A stretch of 64,000 bases of DNA from a virus (Duplodnaviria > Heunggongvirae > Uroviricota > Caudoviricetes), in IMG/VR virus record IMGVR_UViG_3300042445_002023. One strand, 5' to 3'. Shown one piece after another: positions 356 to 39,827 of this stretch. The position numbers were made by a program, and so were the translations under genes. Under the pieces are notes generated by a model, which was not told where the DNA came from, ran no database searches, and saw only the letters and a program-made list of their open reading frames with translations. Within the stretch, counting starts at the first letter, position 1. Every line of letters starts with the position of its first letter.

Positions 356-1354
356 ATGGTTTACGATGTTTATTATACCACAGGTGGTGGACCGTGGGTC
401 AATGCAGGTTCTGATATTTGGGTAAATCTTTGGATAGAATTAATAGCACCTAAATTAGATATTAAACCAATTCTACTAATTCATAGAAACAAACCCAAAG
501 GACACGAAGATTACGAATTCCCAATAGAAACTTACTGGCATGGTGAAGATATTCAAAAATTTGAAGAACTATGTAAAGGTGCACGAAGAATTAATATCCT
601 ACATGGACATTATACTCCAATGAAACCAATCGTAGATAATAAAGATAAAATCCATTCAAATATATTACACAATTCAATAGACCACATCCTAAAATCTCAA
701 TTTGGAAGTGATTTACCAATAGGACATCATCCTTATATGAGTTCAGAATGGGAACAAGAGGTTACTGATTGGTGTGAAACTAATATATGGGTAGGATTAT
801 ACGAAATACTTTATAAAAATACTAATATACCAAATTTTTACGAATTTAAATGGAATTTACCACTATCCGAATCTAATAGGTTAGGATTTGCAGCAAGAAG
901 TGAAGGTAGAAAAAATCCACACTATTTAGATAAAATTCCTAGTCTTATTTTTACTAACTCTCAAGAATTTAATGTACTTTGGAAAAATGGGGTAAAAGTA
1001 GATATTTCAAAATCAAAATTATATCATTATACTCCAGATTTTAAAGATACATTTTATGATATGGATTGGGGTATATCACACTCTGCGTTTATATCAGAAC
1101 CCTTTGGATATTCAATATTTGAAGCGGTTGATAAAGGTAAATTACCAATACTACATTCGAGTTGGTGTAAAGATTTAGAATATCCATACCGAGCATCGTC
1201 TAAAACTGAATTTTTTGATATTTATACAAAGATTACTACATTATCTTATTCTGAAAAATTATATTGGTTTAATATTATAAAAAATTATATGATTAAAAAA
1301 TATACAGATAAGAATAAGTGGATTGATTCATTATTAGATATTTATAATAAATAG
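356..1354 (+). CDS. hypothetical protein (332 aa), possible tail fibre-associated protein
   Basis: Long ORF packed tightly between structural genes; no recognisable motif. Confidence 0.5.
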   Translation: MVYDVYYTTGGGPWVNAGSDIWVNLWIELIAPKLDIKPILLIHRNKPKGHEDYEFPIETYWHGEDIQKFEELCKGARRINILHGHYTPMKPIVDNKDKIHSNILHNSIDHILKSQFGSDLPIGHHPYMSSEWEQEVTDWCETNIWVGLYEILYKNTNIPNFYEFKWNLPLSESNRLGFAARSEGRKNPHYLDKIPSLIFTNSQEFNVLWKNGVKVDISKSKLYHYTPDFKDTFYDMDWGISHSAFISEPFGYSIFEAVDKGKLPILHSSWCKDLEYPYRASSKTEFFDIYTKITTLSYSEKLYWFNIIKNYMIKKYTDKNKWIDSLLDIYNK

Positions 1355-1365
1355 GAAACACATAA

Positions 1366-2643
1366 ATGGCAACATTAACATCAGGACAAACCAAAAGTTT
1401 AAATTCATTAGGTGCAGCAACAGGTGTTGCAGCAGGACCAAGAGCATTATCAGCAGCAAAGGGAAATTCAACCGGTCCTATTTCAATGTCATCATTTGCA
1501 ATTGATTCGGTAGGTTCAGTAACTGGTTATACATACGGAGTTGAATCTACAAGTGAAACTTATACATTAGGGTTTAGTGGTGCTGGTGCAAATTTTGATA
1601 GAATTAGTAGTAGAGCAGCAAACTTCACATGGAGTGTTCCTGCTGGGTCATTCATAACATTAGGAACAAATAGTGGTACAACCGCTAGTTTTAGTATATC
1701 ATCAATGAACCCACAAGGGGTAGGTGCACAGACTGTACTACAAACAATTCAAACTCATACTATTAGAGCAATATTTGCAGATGGATATAATACACACGCA
1801 ACTGGGTATAATACTTCTAGAGATAAGACGGTTTATTCCGTAGATTCTTATGATGGTAACTCCGTTGCATTATGTTTAACATCTGATTCACCAATAACAA
1901 TGGCTGATGGTTCTATTAAGGAAGTTGGCCAAATTGAAGAAGGTGATAAATTAAAAGGATTTTCTTTAAGTGGATTATCAATCGATTCAGATGGCACATT
2001 CTATGATTGGTCTACATCTGAATTAAATAAAACTGAAAAAGAAGTAACAGTTGTGAATGTAATATATTCATTTACTGGTAAATATTACAATGTTAATAAT
2101 GGTGAAATCACTGCTACATCAGAACATCCATTATTAGTTAAAGATTCTACTGATAATTTATATAGATTTAAACAAATGTTTAATTTAAATCTTAATGATA
2201 AATTAATTAAATTTGAAAATGGTAATACACAAGAAATAGATATAACATCAATAACAATTGATGAAGAAACATCTGAAATCGTATCATTAGATGTGGAAGC
2301 AGAAGATACCTATTTAGTAAATGGATATATTACCCATAATAAAGGTGGTAACGCATTTACGGATTTAGGAGCTCCTGGTGCACCAACCTCATTAGCATAT
2401 GCATCTCCAAGTTTAAGTTGGGTAGCACCTACTGCAGTTGGAACAGCTGGTATTACTGCATATGATATACAAATATCATCTGGAAATACATTTGCTACAA
2501 ATATAGTAGATAATACGGAATGGAGTACTACAACTATTGAAGTTAATACCCTATTAACTGCAGGTACGTGGTATGCTAGAGTTAGAGCAATTGACCAAGG
2601 TCTTAAAGGTGCTTGGACATCTGCTTATTCATTTGTTAGATAA
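1366..2643 (+). CDS. structural, fibre-like protein with an internal Hint (intein-like) domain and a C-terminal fibronectin type III domain
   Basis: Intein blocks present: CLTSDSPITMADGSIKEVGQIEEGDKL, TSEHPLLV, and VSLDVEAEDTYLVNGYITHN ending in HN. Downstream FN3-like segment ends WYARVRAID. N-terminal part is G/S/T-rich. Confidence 0.65.
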   Translation: MATLTSGQTKSLNSLGAATGVAAGPRALSAAKGNSTGPISMSSFAIDSVGSVTGYTYGVESTSETYTLGFSGAGANFDRISSRAANFTWSVPAGSFITLGTNSGTTASFSISSMNPQGVGAQTVLQTIQTHTIRAIFADGYNTHATGYNTSRDKTVYSVDSYDGNSVALCLTSDSPITMADGSIKEVGQIEEGDKLKGFSLSGLSIDSDGTFYDWSTSELNKTEKEVTVVNVIYSFTGKYYNVNNGEITATSEHPLLVKDSTDNLYRFKQMFNLNLNDKLIKFENGNTQEIDITSITIDEETSEIVSLDVEAEDTYLVNGYITHNKGGNAFTDLGAPGAPTSLAYASPSLSWVAPTAVGTAGITAYDIQISSGNTFATNIVDNTEWSTTTIEVNTLLTAGTWYARVRAIDQGLKGAWTSAYSFVR

Positions 2644-2712: not shown

Positions 2713-2982
2713 ATGGCAGAAAAAATTAAGTTTACGGAAGACGAAGTCGCACAAATTAACAAATTACGAATTGATGTTGGGGCTGTTTTTACTGAATTAG
2801 GACAAATTCATATTGAAAAAAGAAGAAGATTGTCAGAATTAGAAGAAAGAGAAGCAGAATTAACTAAACAACATTCGGATTTAGTTATAACGGAAGAAAC
2901 CTTATTTAAAGGATTAAATGAAAAATACGGAGATGGTGATTACAACCCTACAACGGGAGAATTCACACCAATCGCAGAATAA
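2713..2982 (+). CDS. hypothetical coiled-coil protein (89 aa)
   Basis: Preceded by the late-type motif at 2667-2690; charged heptad-like sequence. Confidence 0.45.
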   Translation: MAEKIKFTEDEVAQINKLRIDVGAVFTELGQIHIEKRRRLSELEEREAELTKQHSDLVITEETLFKGLNEKYGDGDYNPTTGEFTPIAE

Positions 2983-3074
2983 TACTACGTTACGCATATA
3001 TAAAATAATATTTTAGAAAAAGTATCTAATACTTATATGTGTATCATTACACAAACTTAATAGGAGTAAATAAA

Positions 3075-5474
3075 ATGGCAGAAAAAATTGTATCACCTGG
3101 TGTATTCACAAGAGAGAATGATTTATCATTTTTATCACAGGGTATCGGAGAAATTGGAGCAGCAATAGTAGGACCTTTTAGTAAAGGACCAGCATTCTTA
3201 CCAACTATCGTAAATACACAATCAGAATTTGAAGAAATATTCGGTACACCTGATGGAACATACTATACAGGGTACGCAGTACAAAACTATCTAAGAGAAG
3301 CAGGAACAGTTACAATTGTTCGTGTTGGTCACTTAGGTGGTTATTCACAAGTAGCACCAATTGGTATTAAAGTAACATTAGAATCTGGTTCTGCTACAGG
3401 AACATATGCAAGTGGTAGTGAACATATCATCGGTACATTACACGCTACATTAAGTGGTAGTGAATCAACCGGATTTGCTACTGGTTCAATAGTATTTGCA
3501 AACGGGACATCAACTGATAGTTATTTTACAATTAGTGGAAGTAATATTGCATATAATGGTTCAGCATCAATTGACCCTTCAGAAGGAAATGATATTGGTG
3601 ATGTATTTGGAGAATCTCCATTTGGAACTAAAAAAGCATATGTGTATACATACTTTGAAAAAACAGCTACTGATTTAAGTGCATACTTATCTGCAGGTTC
3701 TGGTTCTATTTCATTAGTTCAATTACCAACTCAAGTATTTGGAGCTGATACTAATGGTATTACATACGCAGAAACACCAATGGTTAAATCTCAATTAATT
3801 AGCGGTCAACGCCACGATTTATTTAAATTTGAAACATTAGGTGATGGTAATCCATACAATACCGAATATAAAATAAGTATTTTTAACGTCAAAGCAGCAG
3901 GAGTATCTGGTGCAACTGATTACGCTACATTCTCAATAGTAGTTCGTGGATTTAGTGATACTGATAGAAAAAAATCAGTAAAAGAAACATATAATAACGT
4001 TAACTTAGACCCTGCATCTCCAAACTATATTGCTAAAGTAATTGGTGATAGAACATTAACAATTGATGCAAATGGTAAACAAACTGAAACTGGTGATTAC
4101 GCAAATCGTTCTAAATTAGTTAGAGTAAAAGTTGCAGCTGAAGGTTCATTCCCTATCATAGCAGCACCTTTTGGACATGGTGCATACATCAATCCAATCG
4201 ATGCAACGATAGAAACAATCGTTCCTGCAGTTATATATTCAACGGGTTCTGTTAATAATACAGCATCATCTGCATATAGATACTCTGGTATTGATTTAGA
4301 AACTACTGCAGTAAAAATAAATAATACACAATATTTAAAACCATTACCGGGAACTGAATTTAGTACTGGTAGAAATACTGATTTTACATTTGATGCAGAT
4401 ATTACTGCTATTGTAAGTGGTTCGGTTGGAACATATAATTTTGGTTATTCATTATCAACTGATGATTCGGCCGAAACAATTGCTAAAAGACAATTTACTT
4501 TAGCGTTTCAAGGTGGATTTGATGGTACAACGCCAGCAAAAACAATTAACAAAGGTGTGGATATATCAGCAGGTAATTCACAAGGATTTAACTTAGCAAC
4601 ATCAATTGCAAGTGGTTCGGTTGCATATGTAAAAGCAATCAACGCAGTATCTAACCCTGATGATTTTGATATCAACTTAATCGCAGCACCAGGTATAGTT
4701 CGTAGACATCACTCATATGTATTTGATTACATAAGTGAAATGTGTGAGAATCGTGAAGATGTATTCTTCATTGGTGATGTAGTTGGTTGTGATGGTGGTA
4801 ATGATACAATTGATGAAGCAGTTGCACAAGGTGCAGCAGTAGATTCTAACTATGTAGGTACTTATTACCCGTGGGTTAAGACAATCGATAGAAACACTAA
4901 CAAATTAACTGCAGTACCACCATCAGTATTGATGCCAGGTATTTACGCAGCAAATGATGCGGTTGCAGCAGAATGGTTCGCACCAGCTGGTTTAAATCGT
5001 GGTGGAATCGTAGGAGCAGTTTCAGTATTGAATAGATTAACACACGCAGAGAGAGATACATTATACGAAGGAAAAATAAATCCTATCGCATCTTTCCCTG
5101 GCGAGGGTATCGTGGCATTTGGACAGAAAACATTACAAGAAAAATCATCAGCGTTAGATAGAATCAATGTTAGAAGATTACTTATCAAAGTTAAGAAGTA
5201 TATCGCTTCTACATCAAGATACTTAGTATTCGAACAAAATACTTCTACCACTCGTTCAAGATTCTTAAATACAGTTAATCCTTATTTAGAAGCAATTCAA
5301 CAAAGACAAGGTTTATATGCATTTAGAGTAGTAATGGATGAGAGTAATAACACTCCTGATGTAATTGATAGAAATATATTGGCTGGACAGATTTTCTTAC
5401 AACCAACAAAAACCGCTGAATTCATCGTGTTAGATTTCAACATCTTACCGACTGGAGCATCGTTCTCAGCATAA
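3075..5474 (+). CDS. tail sheath protein
   Basis: C-terminal sheath signature: INPIASFPGEGIVAFGQKTLQ ... SALDRINVRRLLIKVKKYI. AGGAG ribosome-binding site at 3063. Start taken at 3075 rather than the track's 3039. Confidence 0.75.
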   Translation: MAEKIVSPGVFTRENDLSFLSQGIGEIGAAIVGPFSKGPAFLPTIVNTQSEFEEIFGTPDGTYYTGYAVQNYLREAGTVTIVRVGHLGGYSQVAPIGIKVTLESGSATGTYASGSEHIIGTLHATLSGSESTGFATGSIVFANGTSTDSYFTISGSNIAYNGSASIDPSEGNDIGDVFGESPFGTKKAYVYTYFEKTATDLSAYLSAGSGSISLVQLPTQVFGADTNGITYAETPMVKSQLISGQRHDLFKFETLGDGNPYNTEYKISIFNVKAAGVSGATDYATFSIVVRGFSDTDRKKSVKETYNNVNLDPASPNYIAKVIGDRTLTIDANGKQTETGDYANRSKLVRVKVAAEGSFPIIAAPFGHGAYINPIDATIETIVPAVIYSTGSVNNTASSAYRYSGIDLETTAVKINNTQYLKPLPGTEFSTGRNTDFTFDADITAIVSGSVGTYNFGYSLSTDDSAETIAKRQFTLAFQGGFDGTTPAKTINKGVDISAGNSQGFNLATSIASGSVAYVKAINAVSNPDDFDINLIAAPGIVRRHHSYVFDYISEMCENREDVFFIGDVVGCDGGNDTIDEAVAQGAAVDSNYVGTYYPWVKTIDRNTNKLTAVPPSVLMPGIYAANDAVAAEWFAPAGLNRGGIVGAVSVLNRLTHAERDTLYEGKINPIASFPGEGIVAFGQKTLQEKSSALDRINVRRLLIKVKKYIASTSRYLVFEQNTSTTRSRFLNTVNPYLEAIQQRQGLYAFRVVMDESNNTPDVIDRNILAGQIFLQPTKTAEFIVLDFNILPTGASFSA

Positions 5475-5528
5475 ATTTTAAAAAAAAGAGAAACCTTATA
5501 TTTATTAATATAATAGGAGAAAATAAAA

Positions 5529-6017
5529 ATGGCAGAAATATTAGAGTTTAACGAAATGTTCTATACCAACTTTGAACCAAAGATGAAAAATCGTTTCATC
5601 ATGGAAATCGCTGGTATCCCTTCATATCTTATCAAAGCAGGTAACAGACCAAACATTCAGTTTGAAGCTGTAACATTAGAACACATCAACTTAAAAAGAA
5701 AGTTGAAAGGTAAAGGTGAATGGCAAGATTTAGAAATCACATTATATGACCCAATCGTACCATCAGGTGCACAGGCAGTAATGGAGTGGGTTAGAACTTC
5801 ACATGAATCCCTAACAGGACGTGATGGATATGCAGATTTCTACAAAAAAGATATTGATATCTATATGTTAGGACCAGTAGGTGATAAAATTGAAAACTGG
5901 AAACTTAAAGGTGCATTTATCTTAAACGCACAATTTGGTGAATTAGATTGGACATCAAATGACCCTGCAGAGATTACATTAACGTTAGCTTACGATTATG
6001 CAATACTTGAATTCTAA
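5529..6017 (+). CDS. tail tube protein (putative)
   Basis: 162 aa ORF directly after the sheath gene with an AGGAG site; size and position are typical of a tube protein; strong terminator follows. Confidence 0.55.
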   Translation: MAEILEFNEMFYTNFEPKMKNRFIMEIAGIPSYLIKAGNRPNIQFEAVTLEHINLKRKLKGKGEWQDLEITLYDPIVPSGAQAVMEWVRTSHESLTGRDGYADFYKKDIDIYMLGPVGDKIENWKLKGAFILNAQFGELDWTSNDPAEITLTLAYDYAILEF

Positions 6018-6042
6018 TAGAATTAAAATATAAAATTAAGAA

Positions 6043-6069
6043 AGGAGATAGAAATATCTCCTTTTTTTT
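6043..6069 (+). terminator. rho-independent terminator: AGGAGATA-gaaa-TATCTCCT followed by T8
   Basis: Perfect 8-bp stem, 4-nt loop and a T-run, seen directly in the sequence. Confidence 0.75.
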
Positions 6070-6082
6070 CAATTTTTTTTTT

Positions 6083-6110
6083 ATTTATATATTTATATAC
6101 AATAACAAAA
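6083..6110 (+). promoter_or_regulatory. late-type promoter-like motif: TATATATTTATATACAATAACAAAA
   Basis: Conserved copies at 2667-2690, 15859-15885 and 55628-55660; each lies 20-30 nt upstream of an ATG. Confidence 0.5.
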
Positions 6111-6122
6111 TAAAGGTAAAAT

Positions 6123-6878
6123 ATGTCACAATACGAATTCTCAACGGAAATAGTTGGATTACCATCTCAAGGTAAATGCTATCCAGAAACAAATCCATTA
6201 TCAAGTGGTAACATCGAATTAAAATATATGACGGCAAGAGAGGAAGAAATTCTTTCATCTCAAAGTTTGATTAAAAAAGGTGTAGTATTAGATAAATTAT
6301 TCGAAGCAATTATAGTAGATAAGAAAGTAAATCCAGATGATATTCTTTTGGGTGATAAAAACGCTATTATGTTAGCAACTCGTATCTTAGGATATGGACC
6401 AGAATATAAGATTGAAATATTAGATGATAATGATACCAAACAACAAATTACTGTTGATTTAGGTAAAGTTCAAACAAAAGATATTGATTATTCAAAGTTA
6501 AATACTGAAAATCGTTATCAATTTACAACATCAACTGGAAATGTATTAGTTTTTAAACTATTAACACATGGTGATGAAAAACGAATTGATGCTGATGTTA
6601 ACGCTTTAAAAAGATTGAACAAAGATTCAATGGGGAGTGAATTAACCACCCGTTATCGTTATATGATACAATCGGTAGATGGTAAAGAAGACACCAAATC
6701 TATAACTGATTTTATTAATAATAAATTCCTTGCTAGAGATACTAAAGGATTTAGAGAACATGTAAAAAATTTACAACCGGATATCAAAATGGAATTTGAT
6801 TACGAAAACCCTGAAACAGGAGAAATGGAGGTAAGACCTATTACAATGGGTGTTAGCTTTTTTTGGCCTACCGAGTAA
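6123..6878 (+). CDS. hypothetical protein, possible tail assembly chaperone (first ORF of a candidate frameshift pair)
   Basis: Sits between the tube and tape-measure genes; ends at a T7 run; the next ORF overlaps it in the +1 frame. Confidence 0.5.
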   Translation: MSQYEFSTEIVGLPSQGKCYPETNPLSSGNIELKYMTAREEEILSSQSLIKKGVVLDKLFEAIIVDKKVNPDDILLGDKNAIMLATRILGYGPEYKIEILDDNDTKQQITVDLGKVQTKDIDYSKLNTENRYQFTTSTGNVLVFKLLTHGDEKRIDADVNALKRLNKDSMGSELTTRYRYMIQSVDGKEDTKSITDFINNKFLARDTKGFREHVKNLQPDIKMEFDYENPETGEMEVRPITMGVSFFWPTE

Positions 6879-7411: not shown

Positions 7412-9970
7412 ATGGCAAAAAATAAAACAGCAGAAGAAAAAGAATATCAAGATGCAGTCAAATATACCTCATCTATCATAGGTGATATGAAGAGGGCTAT
7501 TGAAGAAACTGCTGAAGCTTCTGATTTGCGCAATAAAAAAATATTTGAAGAAATAAGTTTAACTAAAAAAGTGTTAAACTCATTAAAGGATGAAAAATCC
7601 TACGAAGAGGCTCTAATTAAATTATCGGCCCAAAAAGGACAAGTCCTACAATCAAATTTTGGTGTTAATGAAAAAATGAAATCAACGTATCTAGCACAAT
7701 TAGATGCAGCAGATGCTATTGTAAAAAAGGAATTAGCTAGATTAAAAATAATAAATGAAACCCAACGAATTGCAGATAATTTACAAAATAAATTTGTAAA
7801 ATCATTAGATTCCATTGGTGAAAAAATAAAAGGTATACCCATAATAGGGGAAACACTATTTAATAGATTTTGGACACCCTTCTCAGATAAAGCAAAAGGA
7901 AGTATAGATGCAGTAAAAAAACGTTTTATGACTCAGTTCAAAACGGGATTTACTCAAGCAACTAATAAGGGTTCTAATATGATGGAATCATTTACTTCCG
8001 GATTAAGTAGAGGATTTGGTTCTGCTAAAAATATGATAATGGGATTGTTAGGACCTCAAGGGATAGCAATATTATCCGTTGTCGCAGTAGTTGCAGCAGT
8101 TGCATTAATTGCATATGCTTTATACAAAGCATTTGAAGTAGGGTTGGAGAGATTTAAAGAAATAGAAGCAGCAGCAAAATCTTTTAGAGAGGAAACCGGA
8201 TTATTAAATTCTCAAACTAGAACTTTACAAGGTAACATAAAAGCAGTATCAACTGAATTCGCAGGATTAGGTGTAAGTGCAGAAGATGTAGGTAAATCTG
8301 CAACCGCGTTTACACAAACATTTGGCGGGCTAGAGCAACCTTCAAGAGAAGTGTTGGGTTCTATGGTTATGTTGAATAAAAACTTTGGTGTTGGGGTAGA
8401 ACAAGGTGCCGAATTAAATAAAGTATTTCAAAATATAGGTGGATTAACTGCCGCACAATCACAAGCACTAATCGGTCAAACTGCTGAAATGGCAAAGATG
8501 GCTGGGGTTGCACCTTCAAAGGTAATAGCAGATATGGCGGAGAGTTCTGAATATGCATATCGTTATTTTAATGGTTCTCCAAAAGAATTAGCTAAAGCAG
8601 CAGTTCAAGCAGCAAAATTAGGAACATCGATTAAAGAAGCAGGTGCAGTTGCAGATAATCTTTTGGATTTTGAAAGTAGTATTACCTCAGAATTAGAAGC
8701 AAGTGCAATATTAGGAACAAACCTAAATCTTTCTCAAGCAAGATATCTAGCAGCTAATAATGACATATTGGGTGCACAACAGGCTGTATTAGACCAAGTA
8801 TCGAGTTTAGGTGATTTAACAAAATTAAATAAATTTGAACAAGATGCTCTTACTAAAGCAACTGGTATGCAAATGGGTGATTTAATAAATCAACAAAGAA
8901 TTAGAGAACAATTTGGTAAATTAAATTCAGAACAATTAGCATCGGCAATGTCCTTAATGGATTCTGGTAGAGATATCACTTCATTATCAAAAGAGGATTT
9001 AGATTTACAAACTAAACGATTATCATCTCAAAAGGATATGCAAGGAGTAATGGATAACCTTGCAAATAGTTCATCTGCTCTTAAAACTGGATTTAGTGAT
9101 ATGTTCGAACCAATAGCAGCATTTGTAATGCCAGTATTAAATGATTTATTTACAATATTAAACGCAGTTCTATTACCGATATTTAGAGTTATAGGATTGG
9201 CGTTTAAAATGGTATTCAAACCACTTAAAGCAGTTTATGATGTTATATCTGCAATTGTCATGCCATTAGTAGCAATCGGTTCTGCAATAACAAATGCATT
9301 ACTTACTCCATTTGAAGCTGCGTTTGATGCATTAGAACCATTGTTTTTAAAAATAGGTGAATTCAAAGAAGTAATGATGAAATTTGCACAACCAATAATT
9401 GGAGTTATTAGTAGTATTGGTAAAATATTTGGTTCATTAGTAGGTGGAGCAATTGGATTTTTTGTAGATTTCTTAGTAAAAGGATTTGGATTGATATATG
9501 ATGTAATTAGTTTTATAGGAGATACAATTTCTAAATATATAGTAGACCCGATTATGTGGGCAGTAAACGGAATAGGGAGTGTATTTAGTTCGATAGGTTC
9601 ATTCTTAGGAATAAGTGATGAAGCAAAAACTGATGGAAGTACCGCAACAACTTCAAGTATTAACGATGGTGTGGTTCAAGATGGTAAAGTAATAGGAACA
9701 AATCCAGCGGATGTTTTATTAGCAACTAAAGACCCTGCTAGTTTATTGGAAACAATTGCTACAGGCTTAGGAACTGGTATTGGTGGATTATTGGGTGGTA
9801 TGATGGGTGGAGGACAAGATAACACTGCAGTTGTTGCTAAATTAGATGAATTAATCTCAGCGGTATATTCTAATAGAGATGTCTATATGGATAAAGAAAA
9901 AGTTTCATCAGCAGTAGTGAAAACAAACGAAAAAAGTGGTGAAAACCGATTTGGATTAATGGGAGCTTAA
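7412..9970 (+). CDS. tail tape measure protein
   Basis: 852 aa with an N-terminal coiled coil, hydrophobic segments (IAILSVVAVVAAVALIAYALY and LPIFRVIGLAFKMVF) and a G-rich C-terminus; position is between the tail chaperones and the baseplate. Confidence 0.65.
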   Translation: MAKNKTAEEKEYQDAVKYTSSIIGDMKRAIEETAEASDLRNKKIFEEISLTKKVLNSLKDEKSYEEALIKLSAQKGQVLQSNFGVNEKMKSTYLAQLDAADAIVKKELARLKIINETQRIADNLQNKFVKSLDSIGEKIKGIPIIGETLFNRFWTPFSDKAKGSIDAVKKRFMTQFKTGFTQATNKGSNMMESFTSGLSRGFGSAKNMIMGLLGPQGIAILSVVAVVAAVALIAYALYKAFEVGLERFKEIEAAAKSFREETGLLNSQTRTLQGNIKAVSTEFAGLGVSAEDVGKSATAFTQTFGGLEQPSREVLGSMVMLNKNFGVGVEQGAELNKVFQNIGGLTAAQSQALIGQTAEMAKMAGVAPSKVIADMAESSEYAYRYFNGSPKELAKAAVQAAKLGTSIKEAGAVADNLLDFESSITSELEASAILGTNLNLSQARYLAANNDILGAQQAVLDQVSSLGDLTKLNKFEQDALTKATGMQMGDLINQQRIREQFGKLNSEQLASAMSLMDSGRDITSLSKEDLDLQTKRLSSQKDMQGVMDNLANSSSALKTGFSDMFEPIAAFVMPVLNDLFTILNAVLLPIFRVIGLAFKMVFKPLKAVYDVISAIVMPLVAIGSAITNALLTPFEAAFDALEPLFLKIGEFKEVMMKFAQPIIGVISSIGKIFGSLVGGAIGFFVDFLVKGFGLIYDVISFIGDTISKYIVDPIMWAVNGIGSVFSSIGSFLGISDEAKTDGSTATTSSINDGVVQDGKVIGTNPADVLLATKDPASLLETIATGLGTGIGGLLGGMMGGGQDNTAVVAKLDELISAVYSNRDVYMDKEKVSSAVVKTNEKSGENRFGLMGA

Positions 9971-9972
9971 TT

Positions 9973-12582
9973 ATGCCAACAATATTAGAATTATTTAAAG
10001 GTTCGAATAAAGATATAACTCCAAAAATATTGGACTTAACTCCCGTGCAAGAATTATTTGCAGGTTCTACACAAGAAAAAAGTGTAAAACCAGATAAACT
10101 AACTTTAATAGAACAAGAACTTAGTGGTATTCGTATAAAAACTAAGGTAGAATTAAATAATCCATTAATATATGGTAACGAAGCAATTCGTATAGCAACT
10201 CGTAGTACATCATCGGTTGAGAAAATGAAACAGGCAACGGGTGGAAGTGCAGGAGATGGTGGATTGATTGGTAAAGGATTAGGTGCAATTACCGGTGGTA
10301 AGTTTGGTAAATTTGTTTTTGGTGGTAAAGTAACATCCCTAAACCAAGCAAGAGATGGTATAAATTCTCGTTTAGGTATTCCACAAAATGTGATACCAAC
10401 TTATGTAAATAATACAGGAGAATTACAAGCAGGATTAGAGCCAGATACAATGATTACTCTTTCAAAAATCAAAAATGATGCAAAGGGTACAATCGTTGGT
10501 AGATTCTTAAAGAATACTGGTGGTGGTAATCCAAAAACAATTGGCAAACAAATAATAGGACAAGGTATCTCATTAGTAAAAGATAAATTGAGAACTACCC
10601 TATTTGGTAATCCAAACTCATTAGGTACTAATACTGCAGGTGCAACTGATAAATACGAATATAGTTCAAAACTACCATATTCAAAACAAATTGATAATGT
10701 TAAATTTAATTCAAAATCAGTAAGTAAAGTAGATAAAGCTGCAACTGATATTACCAAAAAAGTAACTCAATTACAACTTGATGCTAAGAAAAAATTAGGA
10801 GAGGCATCTGCAAATGCAACTGCATCTCTAAAACAAAAATTAAAAAAGACTGCAGACCCATCTGCACTTGACAAACTTATAGAGGAAAAAGCTAAAGAAA
10901 GAGCTGATAATTCTAGACCATATAATGAAAAATATAGTTCATATATAACATCAAATAGTACAGAAACTAATTTAAGAATGCCAACTGCTGAATCTACCGA
11001 TACTGCAGTAAAAGATTCTGCAGAAATTGGTAAGGCTAAAGAAAAGTTAGGAAAAAGTGCTACATCAATAAAAGATAAATTAAAAGGTACTGAATCAAAA
11101 CCAGAAATAGATAAAGCAGTTGAAGCAAAAACTAAAACAACTACTGCAACTCCAACCACTTATAGTGGAAAATTAGGTGATTATACAAACGAAAAAGTAA
11201 GTGAACGTATTGATTTGAAATTAGTATCACCGGTATATGGAATTGATAGAAGAGGTACAAATGGTGTATTTGGTACATCACCCTATGCATTTAAAGATAT
11301 AAAAAATAATACTGGTGCTGTTATGCCTAATGACCCAACTAATACATATAGTGGAGTAGCAGGAGGCCAAAAAATTACTACAATAGAAACGCAATATGGA
11401 ATTACAAGTAATAATGGTGATTTAATTAATAGTTCGTATGGAGTAAGTGGTATTGGTAATGGCGATGATAAAGATTTGGTAACATTTTCAATAGCAGGTG
11501 TAAGTGATTCTAAAAAAGTATATTTTAGAACCCTAATAACAAGTTTAAGTGAAACTGTTTCACCAACTTGGGATTCTGCTAAATTTGTCGGTAATCCATA
11601 TAGTTACTACACATATGGTGGAGTAGAAAGAACCTTATCATTGCAATTAAAAATGTATTGTATGAATTCTAATGAATTATCAACAATGTGGCAACGAATT
11701 CAATTTTTAACAGGTAAAGCATATCCAACTATTGATAAGAGTAATTTAGTAAATCCACCATTTATTGAATTTACATTGGGTAATATGTATCAACGAAAAA
11801 CTGCATTTATAAACTCTCTTTCGTACACATTCCCTGATGATGGTACATGGGAAACTGTAAATGGTAATCAATTACCAAAAATAGTTGAAGTCCAAATGGA
11901 ATTTAAATTTGTTGAAAATGTTGGTTCAGAACTTAAACTTTATGGAACTCCAATTTCTAAAGAGGCGGTTAAAGTAATTAATAAGAGAAAGGCTGAACAA
12001 TCTGGTAATACAAATACTGTAAGTCAAGAACCAAAAACCGGTGGTACTTCAGTAATTACAAAAACAAATACAATCCAAGTAGTTCAACCAACAACACCAC
12101 CACCGCCAATTAATAGTGTGGGGGTAGCACAAACTGAACCACCAAAGACAGAATCAACAAGTGGCGGTATGTTAGGGATGGATTCAACTCCAAAATCATT
12201 AGATACAGGACAGCCGGCAGAAACACCAAAAGAAAGTATTGACCCTGCTTTATTGGCTGCAATTATTAAAAAATCGGAAACCAGGGCAGAAGAACTTCGA
12301 AAAGAGGCGTATACAAACTATAAAGATGAACTTGGTATACCAGATTTGATAGCTGCTAGAATGGCCGATGAGATAGCATTAGGTAGTAAAATTAGTGATG
12401 GTAGTATTGAAAAAGCAACTGAAACTGCATATTACGCACCGGTAACCTATAAAGGACAAACATCAAGTAGAGATATGTGTTTCTTTATAAATAAAGCCGG
12501 AGTTGCCGTAGCAATGAGATACAATACGTGGTTCAGAATGGTTAATAACGGAGTTAACCCACTTAAAGAGCAAGGAATCTAA
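9973..12582 (+). CDS. tail or baseplate structural protein (869 aa), possibly hub-like
   Basis: Large ORF next to the tape measure; K-rich low-complexity centre; no catalytic motif recognised. Confidence 0.45.
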   Translation: MPTILELFKGSNKDITPKILDLTPVQELFAGSTQEKSVKPDKLTLIEQELSGIRIKTKVELNNPLIYGNEAIRIATRSTSSVEKMKQATGGSAGDGGLIGKGLGAITGGKFGKFVFGGKVTSLNQARDGINSRLGIPQNVIPTYVNNTGELQAGLEPDTMITLSKIKNDAKGTIVGRFLKNTGGGNPKTIGKQIIGQGISLVKDKLRTTLFGNPNSLGTNTAGATDKYEYSSKLPYSKQIDNVKFNSKSVSKVDKAATDITKKVTQLQLDAKKKLGEASANATASLKQKLKKTADPSALDKLIEEKAKERADNSRPYNEKYSSYITSNSTETNLRMPTAESTDTAVKDSAEIGKAKEKLGKSATSIKDKLKGTESKPEIDKAVEAKTKTTTATPTTYSGKLGDYTNEKVSERIDLKLVSPVYGIDRRGTNGVFGTSPYAFKDIKNNTGAVMPNDPTNTYSGVAGGQKITTIETQYGITSNNGDLINSSYGVSGIGNGDDKDLVTFSIAGVSDSKKVYFRTLITSLSETVSPTWDSAKFVGNPYSYYTYGGVERTLSLQLKMYCMNSNELSTMWQRIQFLTGKAYPTIDKSNLVNPPFIEFTLGNMYQRKTAFINSLSYTFPDDGTWETVNGNQLPKIVEVQMEFKFVENVGSELKLYGTPISKEAVKVINKRKAEQSGNTNTVSQEPKTGGTSVITKTNTIQVVQPTTPPPPINSVGVAQTEPPKTESTSGGMLGMDSTPKSLDTGQPAETPKESIDPALLAAIIKKSETRAEELRKEAYTNYKDELGIPDLIAARMADEIALGSKISDGSIEKATETAYYAPVTYKGQTSSRDMCFFINKAGVAVAMRYNTWFRMVNNGVNPLKEQGI

Positions 12583-12627
12583 CCCACCTTAATATAGTAA
12601 ACTATCCGGTGAAAAATAAATTAAATT

Positions 12628-12915
12628 ATGTCAAGATATACAAATAATAAAATACAAAAACTCAAAGATGGTAGGGAAGTCTTCAGAACAAAGATATATC
12701 CAAATATACCATTACGAGATACTGATATTTACGCAGTGACCCAGACGGGTGACCGATTGGATACACTTGCACATCAGTTTTACGGAGATGCATCCTTATG
12801 GTGGATTATAGCAACTGCTAACAATATCCACGATGCACCATTCGCAGTAAACGATGGAACAATACTAAGAATACCAGAAAATTATTTAGAAATTTCAAAT
12901 AGTTTTTCAAAATAA
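12628..12915 (+). CDS. LysM-like baseplate protein, resembling tail protein X
   Basis: LysM-like segment GDRLDTLAHQFYGDASLWWIIATANNI...NDGTILRIP. Confidence 0.5.
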   Translation: MSRYTNNKIQKLKDGREVFRTKIYPNIPLRDTDIYAVTQTGDRLDTLAHQFYGDASLWWIIATANNIHDAPFAVNDGTILRIPENYLEISNSFSK

Positions 12916-12922
12916 ATAAATT

Positions 12923-15430
12923 ATGCCAGGTTCATTTCCAAATTTATCAAATATATATCCTGAATTAGAAACTACTCTAAAAAATAGAGCAGGTAACAAT
13001 AACCCGTGGAATGTAAAAGCAAATCCCGGTGTTAGTGGTCTATCTACTTGGATTAGATTATTAGCTGGGGTGGCACCAAATGGGTGTATATTAGAATCAA
13101 TAAATCCAAACGCTACTGATTTCACATCGGTATATGGTTCAAATGGTGGTTCTTACATCGGCCCTGGTGCTATCGGTAGAAATTTTAGTGGTGATGAAAT
13201 ATGGATACCATCTGGTAGAAGTAGAGCACTTAGACCACCACCTATTATAACATCTATGACTATGGATGAAAAAGCTGAAGGTGGTAGTCGATTAGCAACT
13301 ATTAAAATTCGTGCATTTACAAAAGAACAATCTGATTTATTAGCCGGATATTTTTTAGAACCGGGATTTCATGCCTTATGTGAGTGGGGTTGGAATACTC
13401 AAAAATCAAATGCACAAAAAGTTGGAGGCGGTGGAAAGGTAACAAATTGTGATTTAGTTGCATACGACCAATGGTCTACAATTAAAGAAAAAAGAATTAA
13501 ATCTGATTTTACTTATGATGCATTTTTAGGTATTGTAACTGGCGGTGGAATTTCATTTGGAGATAATGAAAGTTATGAATTGGAAGTAAAATTAACATCA
13601 GTTGGTAATGTAGCTGAATATATGCAAACGCATAGAGATGCTAATAACACAAATGAAAATAAAAAAGATAGTGGAAAGACTTTTTCACCACAACAAATTG
13701 AAACACAGGTAGGTGATAAAAAAATAGGTGCCGCACTTTTTATGCAAATGTTTAATCAACTTCCTGGACAAAAAAGGACACCTAAAGTTTATAATTTATG
13801 GAACAATCCACAATGGTCAGATACTGCTAATTTTGTAAACATAGATAAAGTAGTTGGGGAAACTTTAAAAGATGCATTATCAGAGGCAGGTGAATTAAAA
13901 TCATCTTCTGGCGCAGAAGTGGCTATACCCAAAGATTTACCGCTATTATCAGAAGAAAAATTTATTAGATTTGAATTGGCATGTGAAATAATGAATAGTT
14001 ATGTATATGATTTAAAAAGTAAACCAAGTTCATGTGGTAGTTATAAAACTCGTAGTAAACTAATTAATATTAAAAATACTTATATTAGTGGATTTCCACA
14101 TATGTTTTCGACTGACCCTACAAAATTATTTATACCAAATCCAACTACTCCAAATTTTAAATTTTTAGATGCACTATCCGCGGATAAAGAAATAAAAACT
14201 TATTTTGAGTTTGATGCGTTAGATGATTCCAAAAATTTTTCAAATATACACCCTTTAGCAGAACTAACATCATACCCCTGGCTACAACACGTAGATTCAA
14301 GAATAGACCCATCAGATGGTAAGAGTAGGTTAGTTCCATATGCATTTCCAAATACAAGGGGAATAAGTGCAAAATCTCAAGCAGATTCTACATTTATAGC
14401 AGTACAAGAAAAAGCTAGATTTTGGGGATACTTAAAAGATTTATATATAAATTTTAATTTTTTCGTAGAATGTATAAGTAAACCAAATTTTGTAGTTAGA
14501 GATGTTTTTTATGAAATGTTAAATGGTATGTCATCTGCATGTAATTCAATTTGGAAATTTCAAATACAAGAAGTACCTGAACCAACTCCAGATGGTAAAT
14601 ATGAATTAGCAGTAGTTGATTTAAATTTTTTAGGTGATATCTCAAATAATAGTGGTATTGTAACATTTCAATCTAGAGGAGTTAAATCGCCATTTATTAG
14701 TTGTGATTTTTCAGTAGAAGTTCCTGCCGCAATGATGTCATCGGTTGTGAATAATAAATTAAAAGATGATAAGGGTCATACATATGACCATAGTCCTGAA
14801 TTAAATCCCCGTCCGGCTTTAGGAACTGTATTTTCTAGAAGACAAGATTTTGTTGGTACTATCCTAGCAGGAATACAACAAGCAGAAAAGGAAGAAGAAG
14901 AAGGACCACCTGATACATCAAATAACCCACCAAAACGAAAAAGTGCAGATGAATTAGAATTAGAGGCTAAGGTAGCAAATTTTGAATTTTTTGTAAAAAC
15001 AGGTGCAGTATATCCTAAAATTCAAGATAGAGAGGCAAAACTAGATATAACTAAAACCTTTTTTGATAGTGCAGCTAACGATAACACAATTGAAAATGTA
15101 TTAATGGTAGGTTCATGGAATGACACATCAGCCCTAAGACAATGTTTTTTAGTTGATAAGGGTTTAGCCGTTAGTCAAACTTTACAAACGAAAGCTGCTA
15201 ATAATACACAAAATCCACCATTTGGTGTTGCTGATTTTGATTTCAAAGTACATGGTGTAAGTGGATTTAAAGTGGGCGACCAATTTCAAGTAGATGGATT
15301 ACCTGATAAATTCGGTCAACCAAATGTATTTCAAGTAGTGAAAGTAGACCACACATTAGATGGTATGACATGGACAACGGATGTTAAATCTAAATTAAGA
15401 ATAGTAGGTAAAGAAAGTAAACCTAAATAA
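12923..15430 (+). CDS. baseplate or tail structural protein (835 aa)
   Basis: Large ORF in the tail module; no specific motif. Confidence 0.45.
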   Translation: MPGSFPNLSNIYPELETTLKNRAGNNNPWNVKANPGVSGLSTWIRLLAGVAPNGCILESINPNATDFTSVYGSNGGSYIGPGAIGRNFSGDEIWIPSGRSRALRPPPIITSMTMDEKAEGGSRLATIKIRAFTKEQSDLLAGYFLEPGFHALCEWGWNTQKSNAQKVGGGGKVTNCDLVAYDQWSTIKEKRIKSDFTYDAFLGIVTGGGISFGDNESYELEVKLTSVGNVAEYMQTHRDANNTNENKKDSGKTFSPQQIETQVGDKKIGAALFMQMFNQLPGQKRTPKVYNLWNNPQWSDTANFVNIDKVVGETLKDALSEAGELKSSSGAEVAIPKDLPLLSEEKFIRFELACEIMNSYVYDLKSKPSSCGSYKTRSKLINIKNTYISGFPHMFSTDPTKLFIPNPTTPNFKFLDALSADKEIKTYFEFDALDDSKNFSNIHPLAELTSYPWLQHVDSRIDPSDGKSRLVPYAFPNTRGISAKSQADSTFIAVQEKARFWGYLKDLYINFNFFVECISKPNFVVRDVFYEMLNGMSSACNSIWKFQIQEVPEPTPDGKYELAVVDLNFLGDISNNSGIVTFQSRGVKSPFISCDFSVEVPAAMMSSVVNNKLKDDKGHTYDHSPELNPRPALGTVFSRRQDFVGTILAGIQQAEKEEEEGPPDTSNNPPKRKSADELELEAKVANFEFFVKTGAVYPKIQDREAKLDITKTFFDSAANDNTIENVLMVGSWNDTSALRQCFLVDKGLAVSQTLQTKAANNTQNPPFGVADFDFKVHGVSGFKVGDQFQVDGLPDKFGQPNVFQVVKVDHTLDGMTWTTDVKSKLRIVGKESKPK

Positions 15431-24039: not shown

Positions 24040-26283
24040 ATGACTTCAAATCAATTTTTCAATAAATTATTACGTGAACTTTCTTATAGGAGTACCGAAG
24101 GGTATCCTATACTCGCTAAAAAAGAACATCAAGACCTAATATCAGATATTCTATCAGAATGGGGTTTGAGTTCAATGGAATCGGAACTAATCCAAAATTT
24201 AACCGAAGGTGGAGAAGAAGATGCTCAATACAAACACGTTGGACAGGGATTCTATGTAAAAGTAAGTGATGAAGGTAAAGAAGGTGCACAGAAATTTAAA
24301 AAAGATGATAATGGAAAATATTCACCGGTAAGTGATGATGAATATGAAAAACAAAAAAATAAAGCTGGTGAAGAGGGCGGACCAACTAACAATCCAAACG
24401 CTAAACCACAGGAAAAAGGTAACGGGGAAGAAGGTCAAGCGGTAGGGGGTGAACAACCACCTGCAGAACCGGAAAAGGGAACTTCATTACAAGACCCTCA
24501 ATCTCAAGAACGATTTAAGAAAGAGAAAGAAGCATCGGAGAAAGCAGCTAGAGAATCCAATCGAAAATATTCTAAAAAAGACCAATCTGCTATAAATGAT
24601 TTTCAAAGAAGAATTGGTGAAAATACCCAATTTCTAAATGCACAACAACAGGAATTAGTAAATGAAGCATTAAGTAGAATTGAAAATCTTTATGATGAGA
24701 ATTCATCAGATGAATTAAAAAAAGAGAGTGCACAATGGTTAGTGGATAATATGAAATTCTCTACCAATGATAACGGAACTAAAGCATATTTTAATGCATT
24801 GGGTGGAAATCGAAAAATCATTTCAGGAAAAGCAGGAACTGCATCAGCAGCAGAATTAGTTAATAGAGTAAAACAACACGCGGAAGTAAGAGAACATAAT
24901 CAAAAGGGTATTAAGGATAAATTATCATCCGCAGCTAAACCGGATTTAGGTAAAGAAAACGAAGCAAATCCAAAAAAATATAAACAAGTAAAGGAATTTT
25001 TCCAAAGTAATCCAATTTTAAGTAGAGTAAATGAATCATTATGGGGATTCTTTTCAGTTATGGATGAGAGTGGAAATCCTAAAATGCCGAGTAATAAATA
25101 CTCAAAAGAATATTTGGAACAAAGTTTTAAAAATCCGGCATTAGATAGAACAATTCAAGTCGCAACTGACATGTCTAAGAATGGTGAAATTGATGAAAAA
25201 TTTGTTTCTGCGTTACAAAATCATAAAAATAGATTACAAAGTCTATTAGATAAATACGAATCACCATCTGAAGAATTAGCTACAGCAATTGATGAGTCTT
25301 ATAATCAAATGATGGTTGATTTACACGAGGCAGATGCAGATGCTGCTTCTGCGGTAATGAAACAATTAGCTGAAAATCGTTTATATGAAACCCTATTGGC
25401 AAGAGGAGAAGAAGTGTACTTACCATCTAAGGGTAATTTCCCAGCAGGAGATGTTATTATGAAAGATGGTAGTGGTATGGTTTCATTGATTAGTTGTAAG
25501 TTTGGTAAATCAGGTAGAACGTATGGTTGCCCTGCAAATGCAAAAGCTATTCAATCGGTACATCCAGACCCAAACAAAAGAGAAATGACTGGTCAGTATT
25601 TAGGAGAAGGTGGTCATTTATTAGTATTAAATGATGAACTATATAGAGGAGATACTAAAGAGGAAACTATCGATAAAACTAAAAAATTCGTAATAAATTC
25701 ATTAGGTGAAATTGGATTAACAGGGGTATTCGATGAAAAAGAATTAAATGAATATGCTACTATTATAGCAGAATACACATCTGAAATTGAAAAAATAAAA
25801 CAGGAAATGGCATCAACTTCATTTCCTAGTAAAGATAAATATTGGGAAGAGTTTGGTAAAAGGTTGGCTGGAATCGATAAGGAATATGCGACTAGGATGG
25901 GTAAAATAATGACCGAAGAAAAAATTGAAAAATTAATAGGTAAAAATAATGTAGGTAATGCTCGTAATAAAAAAGGAGAAGTACCTGTTGAAGTTGCACT
26001 TTGTATGATTAACGATGCGAATAGTATTAGAACTTCAGATGGATACGGATTAGAACATAATAAACAATATTATGATGATAATGGTGAACCACATTTTGTA
26101 ACTGATAAAGGTACAAATGAACCTAATGATTATTCGATTACATATAGAACTAGAAGAACTGCAGGTAGAGCAGGAGGTGGGCCACAATATTCATTCACAG
26201 GTGATGGGAAAGTTCCAGATACAATGGTAGATAATGAAAATACTGCATACGATACCGAAAGTGGTGATGATTTAGATGACTAG
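24040..26283 (+). CDS. large acidic hypothetical protein (747 aa)
   Basis: Long ORF with low-complexity K/E/D-rich segments; no motif. Confidence 0.5.
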   Translation: MTSNQFFNKLLRELSYRSTEGYPILAKKEHQDLISDILSEWGLSSMESELIQNLTEGGEEDAQYKHVGQGFYVKVSDEGKEGAQKFKKDDNGKYSPVSDDEYEKQKNKAGEEGGPTNNPNAKPQEKGNGEEGQAVGGEQPPAEPEKGTSLQDPQSQERFKKEKEASEKAARESNRKYSKKDQSAINDFQRRIGENTQFLNAQQQELVNEALSRIENLYDENSSDELKKESAQWLVDNMKFSTNDNGTKAYFNALGGNRKIISGKAGTASAAELVNRVKQHAEVREHNQKGIKDKLSSAAKPDLGKENEANPKKYKQVKEFFQSNPILSRVNESLWGFFSVMDESGNPKMPSNKYSKEYLEQSFKNPALDRTIQVATDMSKNGEIDEKFVSALQNHKNRLQSLLDKYESPSEELATAIDESYNQMMVDLHEADADAASAVMKQLAENRLYETLLARGEEVYLPSKGNFPAGDVIMKDGSGMVSLISCKFGKSGRTYGCPANAKAIQSVHPDPNKREMTGQYLGEGGHLLVLNDELYRGDTKEETIDKTKKFVINSLGEIGLTGVFDEKELNEYATIIAEYTSEIEKIKQEMASTSFPSKDKYWEEFGKRLAGIDKEYATRMGKIMTEEKIEKLIGKNNVGNARNKKGEVPVEVALCMINDANSIRTSDGYGLEHNKQYYDDNGEPHFVTDKGTNEPNDYSITYRTRRTAGRAGGGPQYSFTGDGKVPDTMVDNENTAYDTESGDDLDD

Positions 26284-39823: not shown

Positions 39824-39827
39824 TTTA

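Follow-up and report, generated by a model that had tools for sequence, protein, structure and literature searches.

Hint (hedgehog/intein) domains are familiar as mobile inteins, as the processing domains of hedgehog proteins, as bacterial intein-like (BIL) domains and as pretoxin domains. Here we describe a Hint domain in a protein of a tailed phage (IMG/VR record IMGVR_UViG_3300042445_002023), encoded at positions 1366–2643 of a 64,000-nucleotide stretch that was analysed whole and is called the window below. Two described systems lie close to it. Type-A BILs are defined, as the type is outlined in PMC4031507 (Amitai 2003, Dassa 2004, Aranko 2013), by a C-terminal His-Asn and the lack of a +1 nucleophile. 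In the route given for them, a thioester forms, the Asn cyclises, and the amino group thus freed attacks the thioester, so that no nucleophile is needed at +1 (PMC4031507). The BUBL BIL2 domain of the ciliate Tetrahymena thermophila (PDB IDs: 6y75, 6tmm) is reported to form an isopeptide bond between the C-terminus of its N-extein and the ε-amine of a C-extein lysine, without ATP (PMC8616854). The phage domain is probably a domesticated Hint domain of the type-A BIL kind, predicted to be catalytically competent and fixed in an accessory protein of the tail module; self-excision with amine-mediated joining of the flanks is the outcome that we favour.

The open reading frame (ORF) encodes 425 amino acids and is preceded by a Shine-Dalgarno-like site (AGGAAA) 9–14 nucleotides 5′ of the ATG. 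Its parts are as follows.

Positions 1366–2643, plus strand: the whole ORF as called, 425 residues, N-domain plus Hint domain plus fibronectin type III (FN3) domain.
Positions 1366–1872, plus strand: N-extein, residues 1–169, from the secondary structure of the AlphaFold2 model.
Positions 1873–2340, plus strand: Hint (type-A BIL-like) autoprocessing domain, 156 residues (170–325), from profiles, Foldseek and NCBIfam.
Positions 2341–2640, plus strand: C-extein, residues 326–425, the linker KGGNAFTDLGAPGAP followed by the FN3 domain, from fn3 Pfam matches in homologs.

The N-extein starts with a G/S/T/N-rich segment carrying a conserved SLxxL(G/A)xATG motif and continues as an all-β sandwich that ends in YSVDSYDGNSVAL. 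One relative gives a weak Pfam Big_2 signal for this fold. The FN3 label of an earlier, sequence-only reading of the window is borne out: the Pfam fn3 model is matched by 36 of 62 homologs, and titin FN3 domains are among the PDB-sequence matches of the family profile. The FN3 domain of the window protein is only weakly similar to those of actinophage minor tail proteins in the phage records. The AlphaFold2 model of the 425-residue protein has a mean confidence score (pLDDT) of 77. The protein matches no PHROGs family, and a search of PDB sequences with the single protein gave no useful match. When the whole protein was compared by tblastn with 50,697 phage records, only two matches were found, both confined to the Hint domain, so it has no close cultured relative there; the N-domain gave no match in these records at E≤1.

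Independent methods agree that residues 170–325 form a Hint domain. Block A (CLTSDSPITMADGSIKEVGQIEEGDKL) begins at Cys170 (nucleotide 1873), block B (TSEHPLLV) covers residues 251–258, and the C-terminal block (VSLDVEAEDTYLVNGYITHN, ending in YITHN) closes at Asn325 (nucleotide 2340), directly before Lys326-Gly-Gly; all the motifs quoted in the sequence-only reading lie where it had placed them. The NCBIfam model TIGR01445 (intein_Nterm) aligns at its full length (1–83 of 83) with residues 170–258, scoring 28.4 bits (E 2.4e-6) against a curated cutoff of 24.5. The Pfam Intein_splicing model (positions 3–155 of 155) aligns with residues 179–325 and ends exactly at Asn325, at a subthreshold 18.6 bits (cutoff 35.8). 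Among the Pfam Hint families, PT-HINT (PF07591) scores best with the majority of homologs (47 of 62 at E<0.01, best E 4.3e-7). It gives no match to the window protein itself at E≤1, and a divergent relative (P0216) reaches 24.9 bits, under the 27.7 cutoff. Against PDB sequences, the family profile matched the KlbA intein (2jmz), BUBL BIL2 (6y75, E 0.009) and a BIL domain (2lwy), the last marginally (E 0.41, over residues 242–311 only). Foldseek searches with the AlphaFold2 model returned the Clostridium thermocellum BIL 2lwy as the best match (TMt 0.80, root-mean-square deviation 2.8 Å), with the Prp8 intein 6mwy (0.75), hedgehog 1at0 (0.73), BIL2 (0.70) and a DnaB mini-intein (0.64–0.68) also matched. 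The domain has the β-fold, block A nucleophile and block B TxxH by which the Hint superfamily is recognised. The mini-intein-sized Hint domain proposed earlier is thus confirmed by profile and by predicted structure, free of an endonuclease and with its catalytic motifs intact.

Conservation was followed in two sets: 121 homologs down to 58% identity, and 115 unique, complete Hint copies from much more diverse sources. The predicted catalytic residues are listed below with their conservation.

Positions 1873–1875, plus strand: codon of Cys170, block A, the expected nucleophile of the N–S acyl shift; present in 121/121 homologs and 115/115 diverse copies.
Positions 2116–2127, plus strand: Thr251-Ser-Glu-His254, block B TxxH; T251 and H254 in 121/121 homologs.
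Positions 2335–2340, plus strand: His324-Asn325, block G, the expected site of Asn cyclisation; 121/121 homologs, His-Asn in 111/115 diverse copies.
Positions 2341–2346, plus strand: Lys326-Gly327, the +1 and +2 residues; both in 121/121 homologs.

Cys170 is the sole cysteine of the protein. TxxHP is found in 86 of the 115 diverse copies. The +1 position in that set is taken by Lys (98 copies), Val (8), Thr (3) or Ala (2), and 93 of the 98 Lys copies have Gly at +2. The invariant +1 Lys of the homologs excludes canonical class-1 splicing through a +1 Cys, Ser or Thr, which the sequence-only reading had judged unlikely; of the marks of a canonical class-1 intein the domain has the terminal His-Asn but lacks the +1 nucleophile. 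Because His-Asn is conserved, the domain is also not of the type-B BIL or hedgehog type, in which only the N-terminal reaction takes place. Its BIL-like nature, likewise proposed before, agrees with the published description of type A (PMC4031507).

With the type-A BIL4 of C. thermocellum (2lwy), the phage domain shares the mini Hint fold, the N-terminal Cys, TxxH and the C-terminal His-Asn. Neither has a +1 nucleophile or an endonuclease, and both are fixed in variable, non-housekeeping proteins; the phage domain fits the descriptive definition of type A. The settings differ, type-A BILs being found in bacterial secreted proteins with a variable +1 residue, whereas the phage domain lies in a tail-module protein, is followed almost universally by Lys-Gly, may have C-exteins of only 1–9 residues and is paired with a gene of GT-B fold. 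BUBL BIL2 has the same Hint fold and matches the profile weakly, and its lysine isopeptide chemistry would explain the conserved Lys of the phage domain. It is, however, a eukaryotic domain with ubiquitin-like flanks, where the phage domain is flanked by an Ig-like β sandwich and by FN3, LamG or a very short tail. In pretoxin HINT proteins (PF07591), a fixed autoproteolytic Hint similarly separates a delivery part from a swappable C-terminal module. Here the C-terminal module is FN3, LamG, Gly_rich_2 or a short tail, without toxins or immunity genes, and the genes lie in phage tail modules.

The closest phage relatives (25–32% identity) are the C-terminal Hint domains of jumbo phages, namely Erwinia phage vB_EamM_Y3 gp110, pEa_SNUABM_5 gp108 and three NCTB proteins.

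L183:4017–5453: Hint gene of Y3 (gp110).
L184:4035–5468: Hint gene of a cultured jumbo phage.
L002: three Hint genes of NCTB.

In these proteins, too, Cys1 follows a Gly-rich stretch, His-Asn precedes a short Lys-containing tail, and the genes lie in tail-fibre clusters. Y3 gp110 has collagen-like Gly-X-Y repeats and reads TTG/CIVFG...LVHN/TDIVAKAEKL-end (slashes mark the Hint borders, "end" the C-terminus), and an NCTB example reads GGGGGGC...LVHN/APVDQKH-end with the Hint beginning at the Cys. They differ in their collagen-like fibre N-exteins, in a +1 residue that is Ala, Thr or Lys, and in having no homolog of the GT-B partner nearby. In GenBank they bear annotations of the kind 'putative phage tail protein, contains intein domain', and they also fall in phrog_38766 'virion structural protein'. 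UniProt has homologs from uncultured phages under the bare labels 'Fibronectin type III' and 'Hint domain containing protein'. So far, only database annotations have pointed to a fixed, selected Hint module in proteins of phage virion modules. In the full-text literature we found neither a Hint or BIL domain in phage tail proteins, nor the Lys-Gly signature, nor a pairing with a glycosyltransferase; this coverage is incomplete, and earlier work may exist.

Several observations bear on whether the Hint segment is a fixed part of the protein. The protein database holds 607 homologs of the Hint protein. The Hint domain is present in all 120 homologs listed, and the sizes among these 120 matches are approximately 415–430 residues except for P0006 (384 residues, 91% of the query covered), which looks truncated. 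The Hint segment is at least as conserved as its flanks, with a mean pairwise identity of 73% versus 66–67%. The median Nei–Gojobori ratio of non-synonymous to synonymous substitution over 79 loci is 0.34 for Hint, as against 0.41 (N-domain) and 0.55 (FN3), the absolute values being inflated by AT-biased, saturated synonymous sites. No homing endonuclease is present in the 156-residue domain. Among 152 N-domain representatives, none was a Hint-less allele in which N-domain and FN3 are contiguous, and a Hint hidden Markov model run across the window found no second Hint, the classical intein hosts (ribonucleotide reductase, DNA polymerase B, DnaB-like helicase and RecA) included. Slow evolution, the absence of an endonuclease and the failure to find a contiguous Hint-less allele fit a fixed, type-A BIL-like module better than a mobile intein. 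The Hint segment has 26% G+C versus 38% in both flanks of the ORF. We considered this dip as a mark of recent insertion and rejected it, since the G+C content of third codon positions is evenly low (10–15%) throughout, so that the dip reflects amino-acid composition.

The tails that follow the domain in its relatives carry much of the argument about function. A profile of the N-domain searched against 1.84 billion cluster representatives found only 152 proteins. Their architectures include N-Hint-FN3, N-Hint-LamG (a lectin domain), N-Hint-FN3-LamG-Gly_rich_2 and N-Hint followed by only 4–9 residues. Hint-less forms have the N-domain alone (150–168 residues), fused directly to a Cys-rich domain or C-terminal to FN3 arrays; in the P0178 type it is joined straight to a C-terminal domain. 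The short-tail and stand-alone forms are encoded by complete genes within long contigs. Many relatives with 1–9 residues after the Asn still keep Cys1, His-Asn and Lys-Gly. The key case is P0218 (in L009), a syntenic ortholog that ends HN/KGTF-end, in the gene order partner, Hint gene, 97-residue gene, sheath, tube and baseplate. The sequence-only reading had the domain cleave the N-terminal part from FN3 during fibre maturation. As the conserved function this does not survive, because HN/KG is kept where 1–9 residues follow, and LamG or other domains take the place of FN3 elsewhere; release of FN3 cannot be the conserved purpose. Each distinct C-terminal tail of at most 12 residues contains Lys (28 of 28), Lys being 4.8% of the residues in Hint domains. 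This includes the tails that do not begin with KG (VHDK, VHGK, VHAK, TFHDK, APVDQKH, AVMVAKK and TDIVAQAEKT). The pattern is suggestive of amine chemistry at a thioester.

The N-domain protein P0227 (448 residues) carries two tandem Hints joined as FVVHN/K/CFVGDT; the second ends in ILVHSEI, without the Asn, and matches Pfam AXH, Hom_end_hint and Vint. In LR756508.1 (L004:4433–5152 and 5167–6465), a 432-residue Hint protein whose block B His is replaced by Gln ends FHN/KH-end, and its gene adjoins a Hint-less 239-residue paralog of its own N-terminal part.

The second component of the locus is the gene immediately upstream, separated from the Hint gene by 11 nucleotides.

Positions 356–1354, plus strand: partner, 332 residues, predicted GT-B (GT4-like) glycosyltransferase fold, from AlphaFold2 and Foldseek.

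The partner gave no match to Pfam (Glycos_transf_1 included), NCBIfam, PHROGs or PDB sequences. Its AlphaFold2 model (pLDDT 81.7, pTM 0.81) resembles tll1591 (7fg9), BshA (6d9t), MshA (3c4q), WaaG and PimA with TM scores of approximately 0.6–0.65, and nearly all of the top 50 Foldseek matches in the PDB are GT-B glycosyltransferases. Among its homologs, R181, K186 and E248-x7-E256 (E248-PFGYSIF-E256) are invariant. By our own reading, without a model match, the last of these may be an EX7E motif.

The linkage of the two genes was observed wherever we could follow it. Partner homologs at 35–47% identity adjoin N-domain plus Hint genes in L001, L004, L007, L009, L010 and L015; in L004, the 484-kb phage LR756508, the gene order is reversed and the sheath lies 77 kb away. 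When IMG/VR was scanned for the partner, 591 loci were found. In the 80 closest the Hint gene lies downstream in 80/80, with a gap of 11–22 nucleotides. A further 80 diverse loci, at 35–41% identity to the LR756508 partner, were found with a profile of divergent partners; an N-domain plus Hint gene ending HN/KG lies directly downstream in 79/80, and the remaining locus ends at the contig edge. Single-sequence locus scans with divergent partner genes returned self matches or none. In bacterial and archaeal genomes, the partner occurs only in five short contigs of metagenome-assembled genomes (L178–L182, from Pelagibacter, Flavobacteriales and Pacearchaeota bins), with the cassette in all four that have room for it; these contigs are probably mis-binned phage DNA. 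A partner homolog is absent beside 5/5 Hint-less N-domain genes. The clade is abundant (591 partner loci, 607 Hint homologs) and under selection, and has two unexplained signatures, the almost universal Lys-Gly after the Asn and the obligate GT-fold neighbor.

A second Hint-bearing gene lies just upstream of the partner in about 14 of the 80 diverse loci. Two Hint genes flank the GT-B gene in L010 (3864–4886 and 6001–7047), L098–L105, L108–L110, L114 and L173. The upstream copies end HN/VHDK-end, HN/VHGK-end, HN/VHAK-end, HN/TFHDK-end or HN/EVGK-end; the Asn is gone from those in L109, L110 and L178, which terminate in GYLCRQ or GYLCHQ. The short-tail cassettes of L007 and L010 lie within clusters that encode Glyco_transf_7N/7C plus LamG, Methyltransf_24, radical SAM and UDP-glucose/GDP-mannose dehydrogenase proteins.

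From the conserved residues we infer the following chemistry. Cys170, aided by Thr251 and His254, would convert the Leu169–Cys170 peptide bond to a thioester. Asn325, aided by His324, would cyclise and break the Asn325–Lys326 bond, excising the 17-kDa Hint domain, and the thioester would be resolved by an amine or by water. With Lys at +1, no (thio)ester branched intermediate is possible. The route that we prefer is attack by an amine of Lys326. This could be the α-amine that is released when the Asn cyclises, in line with the type-A BIL proposal, or else the ε-amine of the same residue, as in ciliate BUBL BIL2. By either amine, the 17-kDa N-domain would be joined to the KG tail and FN3 in a 27.6-kDa product, and competing simple hydrolysis would leave separate pieces of 17 and 10 kDa. 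The calculated masses are 45.0 kDa for the precursor, 17.2 for the N-domain, 17.4 for Hint and 10.4 for the FN3 part. That His-Asn-Lys-Gly persists even ahead of a nearly absent tail speaks for a C-terminal reaction that is coupled to the N-terminal one and not independent of it, just as the ubiquity of Lys speaks for an amine as acceptor. If Lys is the acceptor, this would be a second natural case, next to ciliate BUBL, in which a Hint domain catalyses isopeptide or amine ligation, and the domains would be compact, cysteine-poor ligation modules for protein engineering.

The Hint module travels with the GT-B-fold gene as a two-gene cassette. Given the linkage, the GT-B enzyme probably belongs to the same maturation pathway, where it may, for instance, glycosylate the N-domain or the conserved KGxN(S/T) tail. 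The C-termini of mycobacteriophage capsid and tail-tube subunits are glycosylated, according to work cited in PMC12619734, and the N-domain end and the KGxN(S/T) tail are therefore reasonable guesses for sites that the enzyme might glycosylate. If the enzyme does modify the product, virion glycosylation, as that citation has it for mycobacteriophages (PMC12619734), would extend to aquatic myoviruses.

A number of points weigh against self-excision with joining. Characterised type-A BILs yield mainly cleavage products (PMC4031507), and joining the N-domain to a tail of 4–9 residues brings no obvious benefit. The window protein scores below the Pfam gathering thresholds of both Intein_splicing and PT-HINT. 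TxxHP is absent from 29 of the 115 diverse copies, some of which lack the block B His. The AlphaFold2 model has pLDDT values below 50 at both junctions (residues 162–173 and 327–333). The Lys-in-tail pattern was spotted post hoc, in tails that are phylogenetically non-independent, and the linkage to the partner may in part reflect shared ancestry and inherited synteny of the sampled phages and not function.

The main rival, which we hold to be possible but on balance unlikely, is the cleavage model of the sequence-only reading, in which the domain is a self-cleaving linker that frees N-domain, Hint and FN3 at a fixed 1:1 stoichiometry with no ligation. The product spectrum of characterised type-A BILs speaks for it, as does the free exchange of the domain after Hint (FN3, LamG or none). 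In Hint-less relatives the N-domain is a protein of its own (150–168 residues) that stops at the same point, and LamG lectin proteins are encoded separately near some of the stand-alone N-domain genes. Cleavage leaves unexplained, however, why His-Asn and Lys-Gly are maintained before 1–9 residues and why each short tail has a Lys. The domains that cleave only at their N-terminus, those of hedgehog and type-B BILs, are without block G (PMC4031507), and direct N-domain fusions of the P0178 type make a joined product equally natural. If self-cleavage is all that occurs, tail accessory proteins would have a second means of autoprocessing in addition to the Peptidase_S74 chaperone domains.

A ligation directed at lysine side chains is the next reading, and a doubtful one. 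The N-domain thioester would be attacked by the ε-amine of the +1 or short-tail Lys, in cis or between subunits, giving a branched or cross-linked isopeptide, with the GT-B enzyme acting on the same substrate. Such a product, if it is formed, is not genetically encodable, and ligation of this kind together with the GT-B cassette would amount to a way of maturing phage tail accessory proteins that has not been recognised before.

We regard a hedgehog-like transfer as improbable. Hedgehog Hint domains transfer their own N-terminal domain to cholesterol, and the phage model matches the fold of hedgehog 1at0. By analogy, a non-protein nucleophile or a different virion protein would resolve the Leu169 thioester, leaving the N-domain bound to a glycan, a lipid or a partner subunit, with the GT-B enzyme supplying or modifying the acceptor. 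Conjugation of an N-extein to other proteins is known from BUBL BIL2 (PMC8616854). The obligately adjacent GT-B gene would find a role, and some of the loci lie in sugar-modification clusters. The conserved Asn and +1 Lys are, however, not required by such a reaction. GT-B enzymes use sugars from nucleotide donors, and to our knowledge none acts on thioesters.

A canonical or degenerating mobile intein, whether a selfish splicing element or an inert, decaying remnant, is very improbable: blocks A, B and G, the mini-intein size, the lower G+C of the Hint segment and the occurrence of N-domain proteins with and without Hint would suit it, but the +1 Lys is invariant, there is no endonuclease, no contiguous Hint-less allele was found among the 152 representatives, the C-exteins vary, the site is a domain boundary in a variable accessory protein and not a conserved enzyme site, purifying selection acts on the catalytic residues and the entire domain, the G+C gap is compositional, and the ribonucleotide reductase, DNA polymerase B, helicase and RecA of the window are free of Hint, so the canonical intein was rejected.

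The source phage is a distant T4-like, uncultured aquatic myovirus with a low G+C content (32.5%), and the window belongs to the IMG/VR contig IMGVR_UViG_3300042465_005116 of 229,287 bp. Downstream of the Hint gene lie the following genes.

Positions 2713–2982, plus strand: 89-residue ORF between the Hint and sheath genes, part of the syntenic context.
Positions 3039–5474, plus strand: tail sheath (Pfam Phage_sheath_1 and 1C, phrog_23).
Positions 5529–6017, plus strand: tail tube, gp19-like (Pfam Phage_T4_gp19).

The 89-residue ORF has counterparts of 92, 97 and 82 residues in L001, L009 and L015, the one in L009 being 30% identical (E 4e-11). A baseplate hub gene lies downstream of the sheath and tube region, and farther on are genes for RecA/UvsX, a DnaB-like helicase, ribonucleotide reductase, DNA polymerase B and a clamp-loader-type AAA ATPase. 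By its sheath (47% identity), the nearest cultured relative is Microcystis phage Mel-JY01, which lacks the gene of the Hint protein and has no Hint gene upstream of its sheath; the 333-residue gene found there is unrelated to the partner. A 289-kb relative has an identical gene order, with three Peptidase_S74 tail-fibre genes ahead. The neighboring sheath, tube, baseplate and S74 fibre genes place the Hint gene in the tail module, and this order suggests that its product is a virion or fibre component. Of the earlier description as a tail fibre-like structural protein, the tail-module position stands, the label itself being plausible by gene position only.

Peptidase_S74 chaperone domains are likewise self-cleaving C-terminal modules and occur in the same tail-fibre gene clusters. 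They cleave through a Ser-Lys dyad following trimerisation. Their fold and chemistry are unrelated to those of Hint: they form no thioester and cannot ligate. Hint-less N-domain genes directly follow S74 fibre genes in four of five loci, often overlapping them.

L005:3742–6817, L012:2552–5492, L014:3616–4967 and L185:40–5240: Hint-less N-domain genes immediately downstream of S74 fibre genes, with the N-domain either stand-alone (150–168 residues) or C-terminal to FN3 arrays.

Elsewhere in the window, four large ORFs (747–869 residues) past the baseplate hub, within 7412–15430 and 24040–26283, have no Pfam or PHROG match. N6/N4 DNA methylase domains are found in the ORFs at 33767–34873, 39720–41048 and 48533–50167, for two of which the domain is only the C-terminal part of a longer protein. 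The window also encodes an asparagine synthase (42183–43688), a GT4 glycosyltransferase (Glycos_transf_1 / GT4-conflict, 55880–57274) and an NAD-dependent nucleotide-sugar epimerase/dehydratase (61837–62832).

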